64,000 bases of DNA from the sequence record NC_104726.1; one strand, written 5' to 3'. The notes beneath the pieces are model-generated. The model did no database searches and was not told where the DNA came from. It saw only the letters and a list, made by a program, of their open reading frames with translations. Each line of letters starts with the position of its first letter. Position 1 is the stretch's first letter. Positions 29,920 through 39,429 of this stretch are shown in pieces. Made by a program: the position numbers and the translations under genes. This DNA is from a phage.

Positions 29920-29996
29920 TGGTCTCCACGGAGTGATTCGAACACTCGACCTCCTGATCCCAAATCAGGCGCTCTACCAAGCTGAGCTACGCGGAG
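29920..29996 (-). tRNA. tRNA-Pro (anticodon UGG)
   Basis: manual fold: acceptor CTCCGCG/CGTGGAG, D arm GCTC..GAGC, anticodon loop TTTGGGA, T loop TTCGAAT, encoded CCA. Confidence 0.75.
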
Positions 29997-30007
29997 TATT
30001 TACTATT

Positions 30008-30082
30008 TGGTGGCCCTGGGTGGAATTGAACCACCGTCTGGCGATTATGAGTCGCTTGCTTGAACCTTCCAGCTACAGGGCC
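30008..30082 (-). tRNA. tRNA-Met (anticodon CAU; Met/Ile2 type undetermined)
   Basis: manual fold: acceptor GGCCCTG/CAGGGCC, anticodon loop CTCATAA, T arm GGTGG-TTCAATT-CCACC, encoded CCA. Confidence 0.7.
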
Positions 30083-30083
30083 T

Positions 30084-30159
30084 TGGTGCTGATGGCAGGA
30101 CTTTAACCTACAACCTATTGATTACAAATCAATTGCACTACCGATTTTGCTACATCAGC
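30084..30159 (-). tRNA. tRNA-Thr (anticodon UGU)
   Basis: manual fold: acceptor GCTGATG/CATCAGC, anticodon arm ATTGA-TTTGTAA-TCAAT, encoded CCA. Confidence 0.7.
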
Positions 30160-30164
30160 AAAAA

Positions 30165-30263
30165 GGTGCTAGGTGATGGAATCGAACCACCTATGTATTC
30201 AACGACTACCTCGTCTATTTTCAGGATTAAAAATCCTCGCCCTTGCCAAAGGGCTTACCTAGC
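30165..30263 (-). tRNA. atypical tRNA-Lys (anticodon UUU) with ~29-nt extra hairpin in variable region
   Basis: acceptor GCTAGGT/ACCTAGC, D arm GCCC-TTTGGCAA-GGGC, anticodon arm AGGA-TTTTTAA-TCCT, T arm GGTGG-TTCGATT-CCATC; 99 nt, extra segment AAAATAGACGAGGTAGTCGTTGAATACAT between anticodon and T arms. Confidence 0.5.
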
Positions 30264-30361
30264 TCAGTATGTTGACCATGTTGCTAGTCGGCGATGACGA
30301 CTGTAACATTTGATAATCCGGTTCTGCTTCCGACTTTCGCTTAATTACAAGGTCAACAATG

Positions 30362-30452
30362 TGGCGGAGAGTAATGGAATCGAACCATCATCGAGTCATC
30401 CTCAACGGGACGGTTTTCAAGACCGCTTGAGCACCATTGCTCCCTACCCTCC
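30362..30452 (-). tRNA. tRNA-Ser (anticodon UGA), type II
   Basis: acceptor GGAGGGT/ACTCTCC, anticodon arm GCGGT-CTTGAAA-ACCGT, long variable arm, encoded CCA. Confidence 0.7.
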
Positions 30453-30566
30453 TTTATAAATAATACTGATAATGACACTGATTTTCGAGCAGTTAGTGAC
30501 TAGTATAAACGACGATAAATATCAATGCCATTATCTGTATTATTTATGCATCTAAAAATATAAATT

Positions 30567-30653
30567 TGGTGGGGAGTGGTGGAGTCGAACCACCCGAGTC
30601 GCAATGACAATAGATTTACAGTCTACACCGCTACCTCTACGGGATAACTCCCC
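30567..30653 (-). tRNA. tRNA-Tyr (anticodon GUA), type II
   Basis: acceptor GGGGAGT/ACTCCCC, anticodon arm GTAGA-CTGTAAA-TCTAT, long variable arm, T arm GGTGG-TTCGACT-CCACC, encoded CCA. Confidence 0.65.
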
Positions 30654-30657
30654 AATT

Positions 30658-30732
30658 TGGCACCCCGTACTGGACTCGAACCAGTGTCAACGGCTTAGAA
30701 GGCCGCTGCTTTATCCACTAAGCTAACAGGGC
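30658..30732 (-). tRNA. tRNA-Arg (anticodon UCU)
   Basis: acceptor GCCCTGT/ACGGGGT (two G-U pairs), D arm GCTT..AAGC, anticodon arm GCGGC-CTTCTAA-GCCGT, encoded CCA. Confidence 0.65.
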
Positions 30733-33666: not shown

Positions 33667-34221
33667 TTACTCCCTGCTGTCAATATCAAAACTCATTGCA
33701 ATACGGTATGCCTCTTCTAATTGTAAGAGTCTCCCCCACACATCCCAACCGACATCAAGCTGCCTGCCAAACAACTGTTGTGTGGTTCCGTGAGCATGAC
33801 CGAACAGTTGGACTGATCCGTGAGGCTTTCTGTTCCACTTTGCAAACTGGTAATGGCTCATACAGATCAAATTCTTGTTGTGGCGAAGCTCGTAATAATC
33901 TACAACCTCATGACCGAACTCTTTCATAATTCTGACAGTCGTCCTTGTGTCATGGTTGCCACGAACAAGAATAATATGTCCGTTCAACATATTTAGAATA
34001 TCTGGAAGTAAGTTGTTGATATTCTTATCATTAGTGCACGCAATATCTCCCAAGTGGAACACAGTGTCTGCAGGTGACACAACAGAGTTCCACTCGGCGA
34101 TGATTCCCGCATTCATACTGTCAAGATTGTGATCATACTGAGATCTGTGTTTTTGACATGAATCAAACTCCATGACCCGCTGGTGGAGAAAGTGTGTGTC
34201 GCTTGTTACAAAGTATTTCAT
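33667..34221 (-). CDS. calcineurin-like metallophosphoesterase (Pnkp-type phosphatase candidate)
   Basis: ORF 33667..34326 trimmed to MKYFVTSDTHF; motifs DxH (SDTHF), GDIA, GNHD, GHAHG. Confidence 0.6.
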   Translation of the reverse strand: MKYFVTSDTHFLHQRVMEFDSCQKHRSQYDHNLDSMNAGIIAEWNSVVSPADTVFHLGDIACTNDKNINNLLPDILNMLNGHIILVRGNHDTRTTVRIMKEFGHEVVDYYELRHNKNLICMSHYQFAKWNRKPHGSVQLFGHAHGTTQQLFGRQLDVGWDVWGRLLQLEEAYRIAMSFDIDSRE

Positions 34222-34228
34222 ACATTCC

Positions 34229-34639
34229 TCATTTAAGTTTAATGCAGTTTTTAAGCTGGCGTTCCATACGATCCACAACCTTGTCTGGAACATCATGAAT
34301 GCTTTTATTACCGTGGCGGTTTTCAACCACGATCACGGTATAACTATACCCATGAGTGATTGCCATGTCAACATATTCCTGCACATGTTTTTCTTTTGTA
34401 AACGTATTACTTACCACGATACGGTCGTATCCCATACGCATCATATCTTCTACGTTATCTTTGCACCATTTTGCTGCGAGTGTTACTTTACTTGCATCCC
34501 AGTTGTAATTGCCGTCATCGTCATACCAGAACATGTCGTTCTCAAAATGTGGATACAGACCCTCTAAAGATAGCGCATTTGCCAGTGTTGATTTGCCAGA
34601 CCCTGGTAGACCACGCACGATATATAGCATTTTAGACAT
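34229..34639 (-). CDS. P-loop polynucleotide-kinase-like protein
   Basis: trimmed to MSKMLYIVRGLPGSGKST (GGAGGG RBS); Walker A close to T4 Pnk GCPGSGKST; small single-domain kinase. Confidence 0.55.
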   Translation of the reverse strand: MSKMLYIVRGLPGSGKSTLANALSLEGLYPHFENDMFWYDDDGNYNWDASKVTLAAKWCKDNVEDMMRMGYDRIVVSNTFTKEKHVQEYVDMAITHGYSYTVIVVENRHGNKSIHDVPDKVVDRMERQLKNCIKLK

Positions 34640-34667
34640 AGCGACCCTCCGTTTTAATTTCAACGGT

Positions 34668-34696
34668 AGTATACCTAACTGTTTTGTTAATTTCAA
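34668..34696 (-). promoter_or_regulatory. sigma70-like promoter for kinase/phosphoesterase genes
   Basis: minus strand TTGAAA-17 nt-TATACT; back-to-back with plus-strand TTGACA at 34700. Confidence 0.45.
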
Positions 34697-34699
34697 GTG

Positions 34700-34730
34700 T
34701 TGACACTAAGTTATTTGTGTGGCAGGATAG
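34700..34730 (+). promoter_or_regulatory. candidate promoter for RNA ligase gene (weak -10)
   Basis: TTGACA at 34700-34705; downstream GGATAGACT as imperfect -10. Confidence 0.3.
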
Positions 34731-34739
34731 ACTGACAAA

Positions 34740-35675
34740 ATGACAAATGAGGAACATATAATGAAGTATTTTAATGCAGACGACCTAGTTGACAAAGGTC
34801 TTGCAACCAGTAGGTATTACCCAGATCTCGGGTTAAAGATCTATAAATATGCTAGAAAAGTATTTTACAACAATTTATGGCATTTGTCCCCTCGTTTACT
34901 GGAGTGCCGAGGCATTGTTGTAGGTAATGAAGGAAATGTTGTGGCATGGCCCTTCACAAAAGTGTTTAACTTGGGAGAAAACTCCACCAACCTGCCTGAC
35001 AATAAGCTTGTGACTGCGGTAGAGAAAAAGAACGGATTCCTTGGTGTGGTATCATCTCATAAAGGTGACCTATTGTTCTCAACAACCGGGTCTCTTGATT
35101 CTCCATATTGTAACCTTGCAAAGGAAACCATCCAAGAGCAATGTGGTAATTTAGATCTTATCAAGAAGGTTATGGGCAATGAAAACATGACATTCATGTT
35201 TGAAATTTGTCACCCTTCAGATCCGCATATTGTTCAAGAAGACCATGGCGCATATTTGATAGGTTGCAGATATAATGATTCTGGAATAATGCTACCAGAA
35301 GCAGCTTTAGATGGGATTGCCAAATACCTTGGTGCAAAACGTCCTAACACTGTGCGTGAAATTCCGTTCAGCTATGCAAAAGAATTAGCTGCAGAAACAA
35401 GAGGTGAAGGGTATATGATTCGTAAGCCTTACTACCCTTATGATCTGCAGCTGAAGATCAAGTCTCCATACTATCTGGCACGGAAGGCAGTAATGAGGGG
35501 TAAAGCTTGGAAGATTTGGGATGATGATATCTTTAAACGTGTTGACGAAGAGTTTTACGGTATGGTAAAATTTATTCGTAGCAACTATACAGAAGATGTG
35601 TGGAATTGCTTATTAGAGCAGGAGCGTCGTGAGATACTGGACTACTATTTCCACAACGAGGACTATATGCAATGA
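34740..35675 (+). CDS. rnlA: RNA ligase 1 (T4 RnlA-like)
   Basis: 311 aa; LLECRGIVV and VFNLGEN match T4 Rnl1 ALECRGIMF / FFNLNEN; nucleotidyltransferase motif I KKNG; motif V LKIKS. Confidence 0.7.
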   Translation: MTNEEHIMKYFNADDLVDKGLATSRYYPDLGLKIYKYARKVFYNNLWHLSPRLLECRGIVVGNEGNVVAWPFTKVFNLGENSTNLPDNKLVTAVEKKNGFLGVVSSHKGDLLFSTTGSLDSPYCNLAKETIQEQCGNLDLIKKVMGNENMTFMFEICHPSDPHIVQEDHGAYLIGCRYNDSGIMLPEAALDGIAKYLGAKRPNTVREIPFSYAKELAAETRGEGYMIRKPYYPYDLQLKIKSPYYLARKAVMRGKAWKIWDDDIFKRVDEEFYGMVKFIRSNYTEDVWNCLLEQERREILDYYFHNEDYMQ

Positions 35676-36022
35676 AGAAGTGGATTGTGTGGCTTGATGA
35701 TTTTAGAGATCCGTCAGATTATGGACTCCCAGACGCTCTGTGGCTAAAGAATTCTTCTGAGTTTATGGATTTTCTTAATGATAAGAGAAAGCTCTACAGA
35801 CGCGTATCTGAGTGGTATTTTGACAATGATCTAGGTGAAGTGCTTGAAGGGTACGACTGCTTCTCTGCGCTAGAGGAGAAACTTGTATTCGGAAAGCCAC
35901 CACTTATTGACAACGTGATTATTTTCGTGCATACTTCTAATCCATCGGCAGCTCGTAAATTTATGCTTGCTGCTGACTCATTCAAGAAGTTTGGAATAGA
36001 GATTAAACAAAACATCTACTGA
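35672..36022 (+). CDS. hypothetical protein, receiver-like alpha/beta fold suspected
   Basis: 116 aa; N-terminal MKKWIVWLDDFRDP resembles beta1-DD of CheY-like receiver; translationally coupled (ATGA) to RNA ligase. Confidence 0.3.
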   Translation: MKKWIVWLDDFRDPSDYGLPDALWLKNSSEFMDFLNDKRKLYRRVSEWYFDNDLGEVLEGYDCFSALEEKLVFGKPPLIDNVIIFVHTSNPSAARKFMLAADSFKKFGIEIKQNIY

Positions 36023-36030
36023 GGACACTT

Positions 36031-36792
36031 ATGCGACGACTGATTATTATCTCCGGTGCTGGTTTGAGCGCTGAATCTGGTATTCCCACTTTCCGATCTG
36101 GTAGCACTGCAATGTGGGAGAATTTCAGCATCGATGAGGTGTGCAACATCCACACCTTTGCCAAGAATTACTATAAGGTGCATGACTTTTACAATGCACG
36201 TCGTGTAGCTCTGGGCAGTGTTGATCCTAACCTTGCACATCTTCGGATCGCTGAGTGGTATTCCCGCTGGTCTGGTCGTGTGATCAACCTTACCACCAAT
36301 GTAGATGATTTGCTGGAGCGTGCTGGTGTAAAACATGAAGATATTTTACATGTCCACGGGTATTTGCCTGAAATCACCTACGAAGATGCTGAAGGTAATG
36401 ATGTAATTAAAAATATCGGATACACGGAGGTAGATACAGGCAAGTATACCTGGGTTAAGCCCAATGTAGTGTTATTCGGTGAGGTTGCTCCTAAGTATAC
36501 AGACATGTATGACCTGTTGACATCTCTCACAAGCAATGATATGGTGATCCTAGTAGGTTGTTCTAACACAGTTATTAATTTTAACTGGGAATTGTTTCCT
36601 GCTACTTGTAAAGGCACAAAACTGCTGATTGTAAACAAGTATGACTCGCAGAGTGCAGATGGAAGTGGCATTTCACGTAGCGACCTTTATCAATATGAGG
36701 ATCGCGGGATCCCTGTATGGTTTAACGGTGCTGTTGACGCTTTCTCTGATAAAGCATTTATTGAAACTGTAGAAAACTTTATGGAACTTTAA
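36031..36792 (+). CDS. Sir2-family NAD-dependent enzyme (sirtuin-like, no zinc ribbon)
   Basis: 253 aa; GAGLSAESGIPTFRSG, TTNVDDLLERAG, catalytic HVHG, VLFGE; lacks CxxC...CxxC zinc-binding module. Confidence 0.7.
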   Translation: MRRLIIISGAGLSAESGIPTFRSGSTAMWENFSIDEVCNIHTFAKNYYKVHDFYNARRVALGSVDPNLAHLRIAEWYSRWSGRVINLTTNVDDLLERAGVKHEDILHVHGYLPEITYEDAEGNDVIKNIGYTEVDTGKYTWVKPNVVLFGEVAPKYTDMYDLLTSLTSNDMVILVGCSNTVINFNWELFPATCKGTKLLIVNKYDSQSADGSGISRSDLYQYEDRGIPVWFNGAVDAFSDKAFIETVENFMEL

Positions 36793-36805
36793 AAGGAGAC
36801 CTTTA

Positions 36806-37519
36806 ATGCTGAATACTAAACTGATCGACAACCTGGAAAAACTGTCTCAGCCTGAAAACTACCTTTGGTCTGCCAACTGGGTGGAAAACTGGAACCGTGT
36901 GGCAGCTAAAGTGAAAAAATCATACACACCATTCGAATTACAGCTTAGCTTCATTGAGGAAGAGTTCAATGAGGTTTTGGAAGAGCTGGAGAAAGGTGAT
37001 GGTGGAGATCACCTGCTAAAAGAGGCCTGCGATCTTCACGTTGTCACAAGTTATGCCGCTTATCTTGTTAATGATAATCACGAAAAGTGGTCAAACCTGT
37101 TTGATAATCCACGAGGTCTTAAGTTCAAGATCGGTGAGTTCTATGATACACTGATCGCTGCGAAAAACACATCCAAGCAAAGAGCGTCAGCTTACCGCTT
37201 AGCGGAGTTGTCAACAGCTTTGCTGTTCCAGCTTCGCGGCGATGTGTGTGGGATGATGCGGAAGGTTCTCAAATCTAATGACAGCAAGTTTGCACGGATC
37301 AACCATCTACGATATTCTCACGGTGCCAGTGCAGATATGTCTACTGAATTGCTCATAGAGTTAGAGATTGAAGATCTTGAGCGTCGTTTTGGTGGTCGCT
37401 ACGAAGGTTTCGTTGCTAAAGAGGAGTTCTACAACGGTAATAAAGTTATTATATTCCTTGACAGTAAAGGTAAGATTATGAAGCCTTCGAGCTTCAAGGA
37501 TGTAACAGAGTATATTTAA
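36806..37519 (+). CDS. MazG-like nucleotide pyrophosphohydrolase domain protein
   Basis: 237 aa; N-terminal all-alpha segment with acidic EExxE-type motif (FIEEEFNEVLEELEK...LKEACDLHVV); C-terminal half unassigned. Confidence 0.4.
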   Translation: MLNTKLIDNLEKLSQPENYLWSANWVENWNRVAAKVKKSYTPFELQLSFIEEEFNEVLEELEKGDGGDHLLKEACDLHVVTSYAAYLVNDNHEKWSNLFDNPRGLKFKIGEFYDTLIAAKNTSKQRASAYRLAELSTALLFQLRGDVCGMMRKVLKSNDSKFARINHLRYSHGASADMSTELLIELEIEDLERRFGGRYEGFVAKEEFYNGNKVIIFLDSKGKIMKPSSFKDVTEYI

Positions 37520-37525
37520 CAACAT

Positions 37526-37550
37526 AGCCGGGATTACCCGGCTTTACTTA
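37526..37550 (+). terminator. rho-independent terminator after MazG-like gene
   Basis: hairpin GCCGGG-ATTA-CCCGGC followed by TTTACTTATT. Confidence 0.5.
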
Positions 37551-37581: not shown

Positions 37582-37890
37582 ATGTACAAGCATTCCAGAG
37601 ATCTTGAAAAAGATGCTGTGTTTGGCGACCAGATGAAGGAGCTGATCAAACTTATAGGTAGAATGGAAGATAAGTTTGACACTAAAATCTACATCGATAG
37701 CAAGATCTTCAACCACAAAATATGGACAAATGTGTGTGTTGGGCTACATGGTGATAAAGATATTGTAAATTTGGTTGTAATAAAGTTCATAGTGTGGCAG
37801 AATAGGACTATACGTTATTCCGATCCACACTTACTTGTTTATCCTATAAAAGACCTACTACAGAAGGAGGACTGCAATGCCGTTATTTAA
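37582..37890 (+). CDS. hypothetical protein
   Basis: 102-aa ORF. Confidence 0.35.
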   Translation: MYKHSRDLEKDAVFGDQMKELIKLIGRMEDKFDTKIYIDSKIFNHKIWTNVCVGLHGDKDIVNLVVIKFIVWQNRTIRYSDPHLLVYPIKDLLQKEDCNAVI

Positions 37891-38146
37891 TCTTGCTAAA
37901 CCTGTAGAAGCACACCAGTTTGATGGAAGCTCTTCATCAGTATCTGATCTGCAACGGTGGATTGATACAGGTGTGTTTACATCGTCACCTGTTCGGACCA
38001 GAGATATTCGTCGCATGTGTGAGCTTGTTGAGCCGTTTGGCAACTTGGTTTTGTACCAGGGAGATTGGTTAGTTGACTTTATGGGAGACTGGTTGGTAAT
38101 GAGTAAAGAAGAGATGTTTAAAATTTTTAAGGAAGAGGCCGAGTAA
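37877..38146 (+). CDS. hypothetical protein
   Basis: 89-aa ORF, overlaps neighbours at both ends. Confidence 0.35.
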   Translation: MPLFNLAKPVEAHQFDGSSSSVSDLQRWIDTGVFTSSPVRTRDIRRMCELVEPFGNLVLYQGDWLVDFMGDWLVMSKEEMFKIFKEEAE

Positions 38147-39429
38147 TGCATCAAATCAAAACAACACTGTACGCACTGAACAAAGATGGCAGCTACCAAC
38201 AGTGGAAAGTATTCACTGATGGCGAAAAGGTTATCGTAGAGTTTGGCAAGCTTGACGGTAAATTGCAGTACAAAGAGACGGTATGCACACCTAAAAACGT
38301 AGGTCGTGCCAACGAGACTACAGCTGAGCAACAGGCCGAGCTTGAGGCTATCAGCAAGTGGGAAAAACAAGTCCGTCTGGGGTATGTTGAAAACATGGAA
38401 GATTGCGAGCAGGGTGTTGATCTTTTACCTATGCTGGTGCATGACTACCTGAAGCGTGGCAAGGCACTTAAATTACCTTGCTGGATCTTGCGTAAGTTAG
38501 ATGGCCTTCGTCTGCTTGTTGTTTTCCAAAATGGTGAGCCTAAATTTATTTCCCGTGGTAATAAGTCCTACCCTATTCAAGGAAAGCTTTTAGAGCAACT
38601 TCGTTCTTTCCATTCTACCACTGGGATTAAACAACTTGATGGGGAACTATACATTCATGGTCTTCCTTTGCAGAAAATAGTGTCTCTTGCTAAACGGTGG
38701 CGCACACAGGAAGAGATTCAGGCCGAGATCGATAAAGACTATGAGGCAGATAAAAAACGCCGTCATGCAGCAATTAAGGCAGGCTTATCAACATACAAAA
38801 ACTTCAACAAGGTAGATATTCCTGTCGATGTTGAGCCTGTTCGTGATGATTTGCGTTACGGTGGATACTGTAGCTACGATCTGGAGTATCACATTTTTGA
38901 TATTCCTAGCGACAAGGTGTGGTGGGATCCAGAAACAGAGTCTGGACGCTGCAAGGATCTTATGGATGCAGAGGATACCGTTACCACTCTGATGCTTGAT
39001 CATATCAAGGTTGTTGACGCAGAGCTTGCGTACACAGTTGATCATTGCGAAGAATCTGTTGGTATATTCATGTCCGAAGGATATGAAGGTACTATCATGC
39101 GTAATTTCTGCGGTAAATATGAGTATGGTCAGCGAACATCTGAAGCATTGAAATGGAAAAAGTTCAACGACGCAGAGGTGAAAGTTATTGACGTTGAGAA
39201 AGATAAGAATGATGAAGGTGTTCTTATCTGTGTTGACAAGGAAGGTATTGTTGTTAAAATGAAGATGAAAGGTACGCACGAGGAGCGTAGCTATGACAGA
39301 ATGCAGGAAATGATCGGCAAGTTTGTCACCTTCAAATATCAAGCAAGGACAGAAGACAACAACTACCAATTCCCTGTCGGTATCTGCGTCCGAAATGTTA
39401 ACCCAGATACTTGGGAGGTTCTGGAATGA
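38146..39429 (+). CDS. ATP-dependent DNA ligase
   Basis: 427 aa; adenylation motif I KLDGLR (cf. T7 ligase KYDGVR); N-terminal extra domain. Confidence 0.6.
   Translation: MHQIKTTLYALNKDGSYQQWKVFTDGEKVIVEFGKLDGKLQYKETVCTPKNVGRANETTAEQQAELEAISKWEKQVRLGYVENMEDCEQGVDLLPMLVHDYLKRGKALKLPCWILRKLDGLRLLVVFQNGEPKFISRGNKSYPIQGKLLEQLRSFHSTTGIKQLDGELYIHGLPLQKIVSLAKRWRTQEEIQAEIDKDYEADKKRRHAAIKAGLSTYKNFNKVDIPVDVEPVRDDLRYGGYCSYDLEYHIFDIPSDKVWWDPETESGRCKDLMDAEDTVTTLMLDHIKVVDAELAYTVDHCEESVGIFMSEGYEGTIMRNFCGKYEYGQRTSEALKWKKFNDAEVKVIDVEKDKNDEGVLICVDKEGIVVKMKMKGTHEERSYDRMQEMIGKFVTFKYQARTEDNNYQFPVGICVRNVNPDTWEVLE

Follow-up and report, generated by a model that had tools for sequence, protein, structure and literature searches.

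The question raised by this locus is why a phage should carry a sirtuin, an enzyme that consumes nicotinamide adenine dinucleotide (NAD+), in one operon with an RNA ligase. The locus belongs to a 64-kb stretch of sequence record NC_104726.1, the whole of which is called here the window, from a Vequintavirus (an rV5-like Escherichia coli myophage). Positions 34740-37519 of its plus strand comprise four genes, coding for an RNA ligase, a cREC (cyclic-phosphate-processing receiver-like) protein, a sirtuin (Sir2) and a MazG/HisE-like protein, and a divergent pair on the minus strand codes for a kinase and a metallophosphoesterase. The identities of these components are practically certain. The open reading frames (ORFs) claimed in an earlier note on this DNA exist in the positions given for them, and its RNA ligase, Sir2 and kinase/phosphoesterase were recovered with Pfam and PHROG. 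The single most likely reading of the set is an RNA end-healing and sealing system with an NAD+-dependent branch, where the sirtuin would play the part of Tpt1/KptA; this is a published hypothesis (Iyer et al. 2022), adopted here tentatively, with less than even odds for the part given to the sirtuin, and as not established.

The core of the module is formed by the ligase, the kinase and the phosphoesterase. The ligase (34740-35675, plus strand, 311 aa) is an ATP-dependent RNA ligase of the Rnl1 type (T4 RnlA-like) that matches Pfam RNA_lig_T4_1 with an E-value of 1e-14 (55.4 bits, cutoff 28.3) and PHROG 562 with 3e-65; its nucleotidyltransferase motifs K96-x-N-G, FE, EG and KxK are kept in 16 sequences. 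Against TIGR02308, the NCBIfam equivalog for T4 RnlA, it scores 38.4 bits, below the cutoff of 242, and its 311 aa compare with 373 positions in that model, the C-terminal domain being shorter. A single-sequence PDB search with the ligase gave no match. Its start may be 34761 and not 34740, which would leave 304 aa (918 nt as annotated). The first gene of the divergent pair (34229-34639, minus strand) encodes a P-loop polynucleotide-kinase-like protein of 136 aa, identified by Pfam AAA_33 (1.6e-10), PHROG 2071 (4e-58) and PHROG 505, "polynucleotide kinase" (7e-10). Its P-loop, GxGK(S/T), and Asp35 are kept across diverse phages, the homolog in phage CarlMeissner is annotated as polynucleotide kinase, and a GGAGG Shine-Dalgarno sequence lies upstream of its ATG at 34639. 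The second gene (33667-34221, minus strand) encodes a calcineurin-like metallophosphoesterase of 184 aa, identified by Pfam Metallophos_2 (1.9e-6), Metallophos (6.5e-6) and PHROG 547, "phosphoesterase" (4e-52); the motifs DxH, GD, GNH(D/E), H and GHxH are kept in 18 sequences from diverse phages and the protein is a candidate RNA 3'/2',3'-cyclic-phosphate end-healing phosphatase. The true starts of both genes are internal ATGs, that of the phosphoesterase following the annotations of phages Murica and CarlMeissner.

Because of this homology and of the conserved catalytic motifs, a role of the triad in RNA repair is probable. Judged by sequence, the three activities of T4 Pnkp plus Rnl1 and of bacterial Pnkp/Hen1 (5'-kinase, end-phosphatase and ATP-dependent RNA ligase) would all be represented, and bacterial Pnkp also uses a calcineurin-type metallophosphoesterase as its phosphatase. 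The phage module differs from the Pnkp systems in being built of three separate small proteins, in having no Hen1 methyltransferase and in its extra cREC, sirtuin and MazG-like genes.

These extra genes are bound to the ligase by transcription. The ligase, cREC, sirtuin and MazG-like genes form a single four-gene operon, as judged by their tight junctions and by the hairpin terminator after the fourth gene. The ligase stop overlaps the cREC start in an ATGA at 35672-35675; the cREC stop (36022) is followed after an 8-nt gap by the Sir2 ATG (36031), with GAGGA upstream; and the Sir2 stop (36792) is followed by a canonical AAGGAG and by the ATG of the MazG-like gene (36806). The operon is closed by an intrinsic-terminator-like hairpin at 37526-37543 (plus strand) with a 7-bp stem, 6 of the pairs GC, and a T-rich tail (AGCCGGG-ATTA-CCCGGCT, then TTACTTATTA); in phage Murica a terminator is annotated at the equivalent position. 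The divergent intergenic region (34640-34739, no strand assigned) separates the kinase/phosphoesterase pair from the operon. A sigma-70 scan of this region gave no convincing plus-strand promoter, so that transcription as an operon is deduced from gene spacing and terminator. On the minus strand the region holds a sigma-70-like site, TTGAAA-17-TATACT at 34696-34668, which is weak evidence; the scan returned 20 promoter-like sites against a shuffled expectation of 14 +/- 3, not clearly in excess. As a separate observation, negative GC skew gives way to positive skew at about 34 kb, coinciding with the minus-to-plus gene switch at 34640-34739.

The sirtuin itself (36031-36792, plus strand, 253 aa) is related to class III (CobB/SIRT5) and lacks the four zinc cysteines. 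It matches Pfam SIR2 (PF02146) with 96.5 bits (cutoff 24, E-value 2.4e-27) and PHROG 2162 with 4e-108. Its motifs GAGLSAESGIPTFR, TTNVDD and HVHG are present and almost invariant in the clade; among 78-120 clade members GAGxS...FR, TTNVDD, H109-G110 and FxE are invariant or almost so, and the catalytic H109 and the pair Y54/R57 are invariant. The earlier note had described intact motifs and the lack of a zinc module. The motifs are indeed intact and CxxC occurs in 0 of 120 clade members, but the module has not been lost: the three strands that normally bear the zinc cysteines are still predicted at its position (110-118, 124-128 and 142-146), and the small domain is therefore, in the model, a ribbon without cysteines and not a deleted ribbon. 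Missing zinc ligands were reported for phage Sir2/CobB in 2016, in KVP40-like Vibrio phages (Skliros et al.; PMC5107563).

The nearest relatives of the protein are found among cellular sirtuins, the best PDB sequence matches being E. coli CobB (1S5P, 1e-20) and SIRT5. The AlphaFold model has a pLDDT (predicted local distance difference test) of 90 and its top 50 Foldseek matches are all sirtuins, with CobB at 1e-18 and a template modelling (TM) score of 0.75-0.84. The sirtuin nevertheless remains below the cutoff of all seven NCBIfam CobB models (best NF001753, 122.9 bits vs 243). CobB A76 corresponds to an invariant C38, and where CobB has VYP in its substrate loop the clade has VINF, the FGE loop being kept; the loss of the zinc ligands and the change from VYP to VINF suggest altered substrate binding. 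The candidate role of a defence-type SIR2 NADase was rejected, the match being to canonical SIR2, in a lytic phage and with no sensor partner. The defence enzymes (ThsA, DSR1/2, SIR2-HerA; Pfam SIR2_2) share with the phage sirtuin the superfamily and the consumption of NAD+, but the latter belongs to PF02146 and not SIR2_2, is accompanied by no sensor, SLOG or HerA protein and does not lie in a host defence island.

Between ligase and sirtuin stands the cREC protein (35672-36022, plus strand, 116 aa), alone and without a histidine-kinase partner. It had been guessed to be CheY-like from the letters IVWLDD, and the guess was right. The protein matches Pfam cREC_REC (PF20274) with an E-value of 9e-14 (52.3 bits, cutoff 27), the family being carried by 55 of its 55 homologs, and its AlphaFold model (pLDDT 92) has an alternating strand-helix fold that comes closest, in the PDB, to the receiver domains of Sln1-type histidine kinases (probability 0.99, TM 0.58, E-value ~0.01); the top 7 matches are all receiver domains save one TIR domain. 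The acidic pocket is conserved: four of its residues (D51, D53, S89, K96) do not vary at all and three more (D9, D10, T88) hardly vary. The protein is predicted to be a metal-independent phosphoesterase. The cREC family was defined in 2021, in a jumbo-phage paper, as a predicted cyclic-phosphate phosphoesterase (PMC7824862).

The last gene of the operon (36806-37519, plus strand) encodes a protein of 237 aa with an N-terminal MazG/HisE-like domain, of the all-alpha nucleoside triphosphate (NTP) pyrophosphohydrolase type. The match to PHROG 671, "nucleotide pyrophosphohydrolase", has an E-value of 6e-22. As a single sequence the protein scores 13.7 bits against Pfam PRA-PH, under the cutoff of 21.3, and a single-sequence PDB search gave no match; within the family, PRA-PH is matched by 17 of 18 members (best 3e-7) and MazG by 7 of 18, and the family profile finds the HisE structure 1YVW with 0.007. 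The metal-binding carboxylates E52, E53, E56 and D76 (EExxE...D) are invariant in 18 sequences. The sequence assigns to MazG/HisE only the N-terminal ~100 residues, to which the earlier description of the whole protein as MazG-like has to be restricted; the C-terminal half has conserved SNDSK and GKIMKP motifs of its own.

What could these six proteins do together? Substrates and reaction steps are here what we infer. The most likely task of the core, with the activities of T4 Pnkp plus Rnl1 or of bacterial Pnkp placed on three genes, would be to rejoin tRNAs after cleavage by host anticodon nucleases, whose products end in a 2',3'-cyclic phosphate and a 5'-OH. The cREC, the sirtuin and the MazG/HisE-like protein would form an accessory, NAD+-dependent branch co-transcribed with the ligase. 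In a first step the 2',3'-cyclic phosphate would be opened to a 2'-phosphate by cREC; in a second the sirtuin would put ADP-ribose derived from NAD+ on this 2'-phosphate, releasing ADP-ribose 1'',2''-cyclic phosphate, which is the Tpt1/KptA reaction on an unrelated fold; and in a third the nucleotide by-product would be degraded by the MazG-like enzyme, possibly with cREC, a place that a Nudix enzyme would take in other phages. In sirtuins and in Tpt1 alike an oxyanion attacks C1'' of NAD+ and nicotinamide leaves, after which the 2''-OH of ADP-ribose attacks the attached group. Since the established mechanisms of both share these steps, Tpt1-like chemistry is plausible for the sirtuin. The fuller proposition, where the sirtuin is a non-homologous replacement of Tpt1/KptA in phage tRNA repair, cREC a metal-independent cyclic phosphodiesterase and the Tyr/Arg dyad is reused for phosphate, is rather unlikely.

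Tpt1/KptA (PF01885), of yeast and plant tRNA ligation, is the proposed functional analogue: it consumes NAD+, relies on the oxyanion attack on C1'' and has as its partners a cyclic phosphodiesterase, a 5'-kinase and an RNA ligase. The likeness would be a functional analogy at most, the phage protein having the Rossmann fold of sirtuins and not the ADP-ribosyltransferase (ART) fold, with no sequence match between the two. PF01885 has no match in the proteins of the module nor in the scanned neighbours in other phages.

Several lines of evidence support the Tpt1-like reading: sirtuins and Tpt1 share their established chemistry; the clade has given up the zinc ligands and changed the substrate loop to VINF; the sirtuin clade lies beside RNA-end-processing enzymes in three phage groups (Vequintavirus/Mydovirus, T5-like phages and CBB); the catalytic motifs of ligase, kinase, phosphoesterase, cREC and sirtuin are intact and the genes are coupled in an operon; no Macro partner lies near the sirtuin; and the same model has been published independently. 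The three published sirtuin configurations were all recovered from raw sequence. In Mydovirus the module is rearranged on one strand in the order phosphoesterase, ligase, cREC, kinase, Sir2, DNA ligase and MazG-like gene. The gene after Sir2 in T5-like phages codes for HAD_SAK_2, a "Swiss Army Knife RNA repair" phosphatase (6e-19). In the jumbo Pectobacterium phage CBB the neighbours of Sir2 are a 2H phosphoesterase on one side and, on the other, a Nudix::cREC fusion and then PIN-PhoH. Beside these configurations, the T5-like phage mar003J3 has two tandem genes with a duplicated DUF7415 (9e-37 and 4e-28) after the Sir2/HAD_SAK_2 pair (locus L017, 7494-8327).

The module had been presented in the earlier note as the best candidate for an undescribed repair or counter-defence system, and undescribed it is not: it is already known, as a computational prediction, in the same phage genus. 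Iyer, Burroughs, Anantharaman and Aravind (2022, Viruses 14:1977, section 3.7.3; PMC9503650) name this neighbourhood in Escherichia phage V5, list its genes (sirtuin, T4-like tRNA ligase, cREC, nucleotide kinase, MazG and calcineurin-like phosphoesterase) and propose that the sirtuin removes RNA 2'-phosphates as Tpt1/KptA does. The earlier note's idea of a Tpt1-like step was reasonable and coincides with this in-silico hypothesis. The window has the identical six-gene set of their configuration 2 (prototypes Escherichia phage V5 and Proteus phage Mydo, the calcineurin-like phosphoesterase being optional), all of it within 33667-37519, with no difference of substance and in the same genus, Vequintavirus. 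The BASEL paper contains no discussion of these genes. Added here are the operon boundaries, the structure models, the residue-level conservation and the observation that the sirtuin is detachable from the ligase cassette.

A number of points weigh against the Tpt1-like reading. In the T4/Pnkp scheme the triad of kinase, phosphoesterase and Rnl1 is self-sufficient and no 2'-phosphate is made; the ligase of the window is of the Rnl1 type, and that of T4, unlike the Tpt1/KptA pathway, neither needs nor leaves a 2'-phosphate. The triad is a portable core, identified without Sir2, cREC and the MazG-like gene in Pseudomonas Pakpunavirus, Vibrio phage Pylo and Acinetobacter Saclayvirus. Among 50,697 phage records, homologs of Sir2 were found in 975, of the ligase in 756 and of this cREC subfamily in 355, and their host distributions overlap only partly. 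T5-like phages, in which neither this type of ligase nor this cREC is present, make up most of the Sir2 carriers; of the records from Salmonella phages (mostly T5-like among the matches listed), 287 have Sir2 and only 14 the ligase and 15 cREC. Sirtuins in phages had been called uncommon, which with such numbers, T5-like phages included, is true in a relative sense. The linkage of Sir2 to the RNA ligase, on which the earlier note laid weight, is present in Vequintavirus and Mydovirus and absent in T5-like, KVP40-like and 7-11 phages, as well as in phi92-like phages, where the cassette of cREC, phosphoesterase, ligase, kinase, DNA ligase and MazG-like gene is intact, with the DNA ligase inside it, and Sir2 lies 33 kb away among unknown genes. 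No recognisable RNA-related neighbour of Sir2 was identified in phi92-like, phAPEC8-like, KVP40-like and 7-11 phages. The shared synteny counts roughly once, because Vequintavirus, Mydovirus, phi92-like and phAPEC8-like phages are related. The sirtuin clade is uniformly acidic, with isoelectric points of 4.6-5.9 and no sign of an RNA-binding surface in the sequence, although the ligase and the kinase are acidic too, so that acidity is only a weak argument against RNA binding. Finally, the literature found on phage sirtuins or cREC consists of computational papers only, with no biochemical or genetic test.

The acyl-lysine pocket of the sirtuin, which also counts against a Tpt1-like role, leads to the first alternative. 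The pocket is kept almost residue by residue: Y54/R57 correspond to CobB Y92/R95, V91 to I131 and V146 to V187, with the invariant C38 in place of A76. In SIRT5 and CobB the Tyr/Arg dyad binds the succinyl carboxylate. As the pocket with its anion dyad is retained, the sirtuin may instead be a conventional CobB-like NAD+-dependent lysine deacylase (deacetylase or desuccinylase) of host or phage proteins, for example reactivating acylated enzymes, and its adjacency to the ligase would reflect co-expression of early auxiliary genes and not a common pathway. We hold this to be rather unlikely, though only slightly less probable than the Tpt1-like role. E. coli CobB and SIRT5 are the nearest relatives in sequence and fold, and GAG...FR, T(Q/T)N(I/V)D, the catalytic His, the FGE loop and the Tyr-x-x-Arg dyad are all present in the phage protein; the acidity of the clade and the distance of Sir2 from RNA-repair genes in several phage lineages point the same way. 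Skliros et al. (2016) favoured such a role for the KVP40-like homolog, whose transcript peaks 20 min post-infection (PMC5107563). Against it stand the position of the clade beside RNA-end or cyclic-phosphate enzymes in three different phage groups and the CobB equivalog scores far under their cutoffs (e.g. 123 vs 243 bits). The zinc ligands are gone and the peptide-binding loop is altered, and no target protein is known. The differences from CobB and SIRT5 include, besides the missing zinc cysteines, Cys38, the VINF loop and the coding of the protein by a phage within an RNA-ligase operon.

The genes found around sirtuins and ligase cassettes in other phages bear on a second alternative, that Sir2, cREC and the MazG-like protein are a small-molecule NAD+/ADP-ribose module, making or destroying ADP-ribose-derived or cyclic-nucleotide signals as a counter-defence against Thoeris or CBASS, and merely parked by the RNA-repair genes. 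In Pseudomonas phage PsIn (a Pakpunavirus; locus L039, 5896-9833) and Vibrio phage Pylo (L040, 5989-10554), which lack Sir2, the ligase-kinase-phosphoesterase cassette is directly adjoined by Prs, NamPRT and Macro genes, a recurrent tie of RNA-repair genes to NAD+ salvage and ADP-ribose processing, with no obvious NAD+-consuming transferase nearby. In CBB the 2H protein next to Sir2 (L022, 5249-5695), annotated "RNA ligase", matches the Acb1 anti-CBASS nuclease family with 1e-15 and 2'-5' RNA ligase with 3e-5; NMNAT and NamPRT lie 2-5 kb upstream of this gene. Such contexts, the Acb1-like protein and Nudix::cREC flanking the CBB Sir2 with NMNAT and NamPRT upstream, and the Prs, NamPRT and Macro genes adjoining RNA-ligase cassettes as a general link to NAD+ metabolism, speak for a small-molecule role, as does the prediction that cREC acts on cyclic ADP-ribose derivatives as well (PMC7824862). 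In the window, however, all three genes belong to the operon of the RNA ligase, and single-sequence queries from other phages, of limited sensitivity, gave no matches to NAD+ salvage, Macro, HAD_SAK, 2H or Nudix genes in its 64 kb. The sirtuin retains a pocket of the type made for macromolecules (acyl-lysine), and, consuming NAD+ itself, it has no obvious value against NAD+ depletion. We consider this alternative improbable. The related proposal of the earlier note, a blunting of NAD-depleting defences, obtained no specific support, with no detectable NAD+ salvage or Macro gene in the window, and against NAD+ depletion an enzyme that itself uses up NAD+ would be a strange choice.

A further candidate concerned functional equivalence. 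Tpt1/KptA was sought at the equivalent position in phages with the ligase cassette and without Sir2 (PsIn, Pylo and Acinetobacter phage phiAbaA1) and none was identified; a displacement of Sir2 by Tpt1/KptA, as a sign of equivalence, is unsupported, and Macro, Prs and NamPRT are found there instead.

The third alternative is that the module serves the repair of DNA ends or nicks as much as that of RNA, the sirtuin, phosphoesterase and MazG-like protein acting with the ATP-dependent DNA ligase encoded downstream, which always accompanies them. The most constant companions are the DNA ligase, the phosphoesterase and the MazG-like gene, also in phAPEC8-like loci and in locus L014; no RNA ligase or kinase was detected beside cREC, phosphoesterase and MazG-like genes in the former, nor beside DNA ligase, phosphoesterase and MazG-like genes in the latter. 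The DNA ligase adjoins Sir2 in Mydovirus, and the phosphoesterase has a weak match to PdeM, a "ligase-associated DNA damage response" family (2e-4), which is far under the curated cutoff and not significant by it. Yet the DNA ligase is the replicative ligase of the phage, so that its position may only reflect the clustering of replication genes, and in the window it lies behind the terminator and two further genes; the contexts of cREC and HAD_SAK_2 indicate RNA. We regard a DNA role as very improbable.

The region downstream of the operon (37582-39429, plus strand) comprises two small conserved ORFs and this DNA ligase (Pfam DNA_ligase_A_M and DNA_ligase_OB_2). The small ORFs lie at 37582-38146 (plus strand), between operon and DNA ligase, and encode 102 aa (h102; PHROG 7684) and 89 aa (h89; PHROG 14585); both are kept near the module in Mydovirus too, at other positions. 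About 3 kb from the module, and as context only, are seven tRNA genes (29920-30732, minus strand), identified with ARAGORN, Rfam and the annotations of relatives: Pro, Met/Ile-CAU, Thr, one atypical, Ser, Tyr and Arg. The cluster fits an investment of the phage in an intact tRNA pool. The atypical gene (30165-30263, minus strand) measures 97-99 nt, is given a four-base anticodon, "atcc", by ARAGORN and scores 35.5 bits in Rfam against 60-70 bits for the neighbouring tRNAs; it is labelled tRNA-Lys in CarlMeissner and "tRNA-OTHER Asp|Gly" in Murica, and may carry an insertion or an unusual anticodon loop.

In the 5.9 kb surrounding the operon the identity to phages CarlMeissner (Bas48), isim and Alma is 99.7%, and the region has matches in 122 phage records. 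The "Campylobacter phage" records MG065644-MG065692 (C9, C14, C15, A12a, A116, A147 and others) are 97-100% identical here to rV5-like E. coli phages, some of them to T5-like phages; wrong labels or contaminant assemblies are the probable explanation, and the host range looks broader than it is because of them.

More than 100 deposited genomes already bear annotations of the module, which the 2022 survey discusses, and the novelty would be in the demonstration, not in the idea. As the operon is present at 99.7% identity in CarlMeissner, a phage of the BASEL collection that can be grown on E. coli K-12, the Tpt1-like hypothesis is directly testable. If it is true, a nucleic acid would be added to the substrates of sirtuins, and to their reactions one for which Tpt1 is so far the only example; receiver domains would have a relative that is an enzyme; and phages would own a second, NAD+-dependent repair route for tRNAs cut by bacterial immune nucleases, with relevance to sirtuin enzymology and to the tRNA-centred arms race between phages and bacteria.

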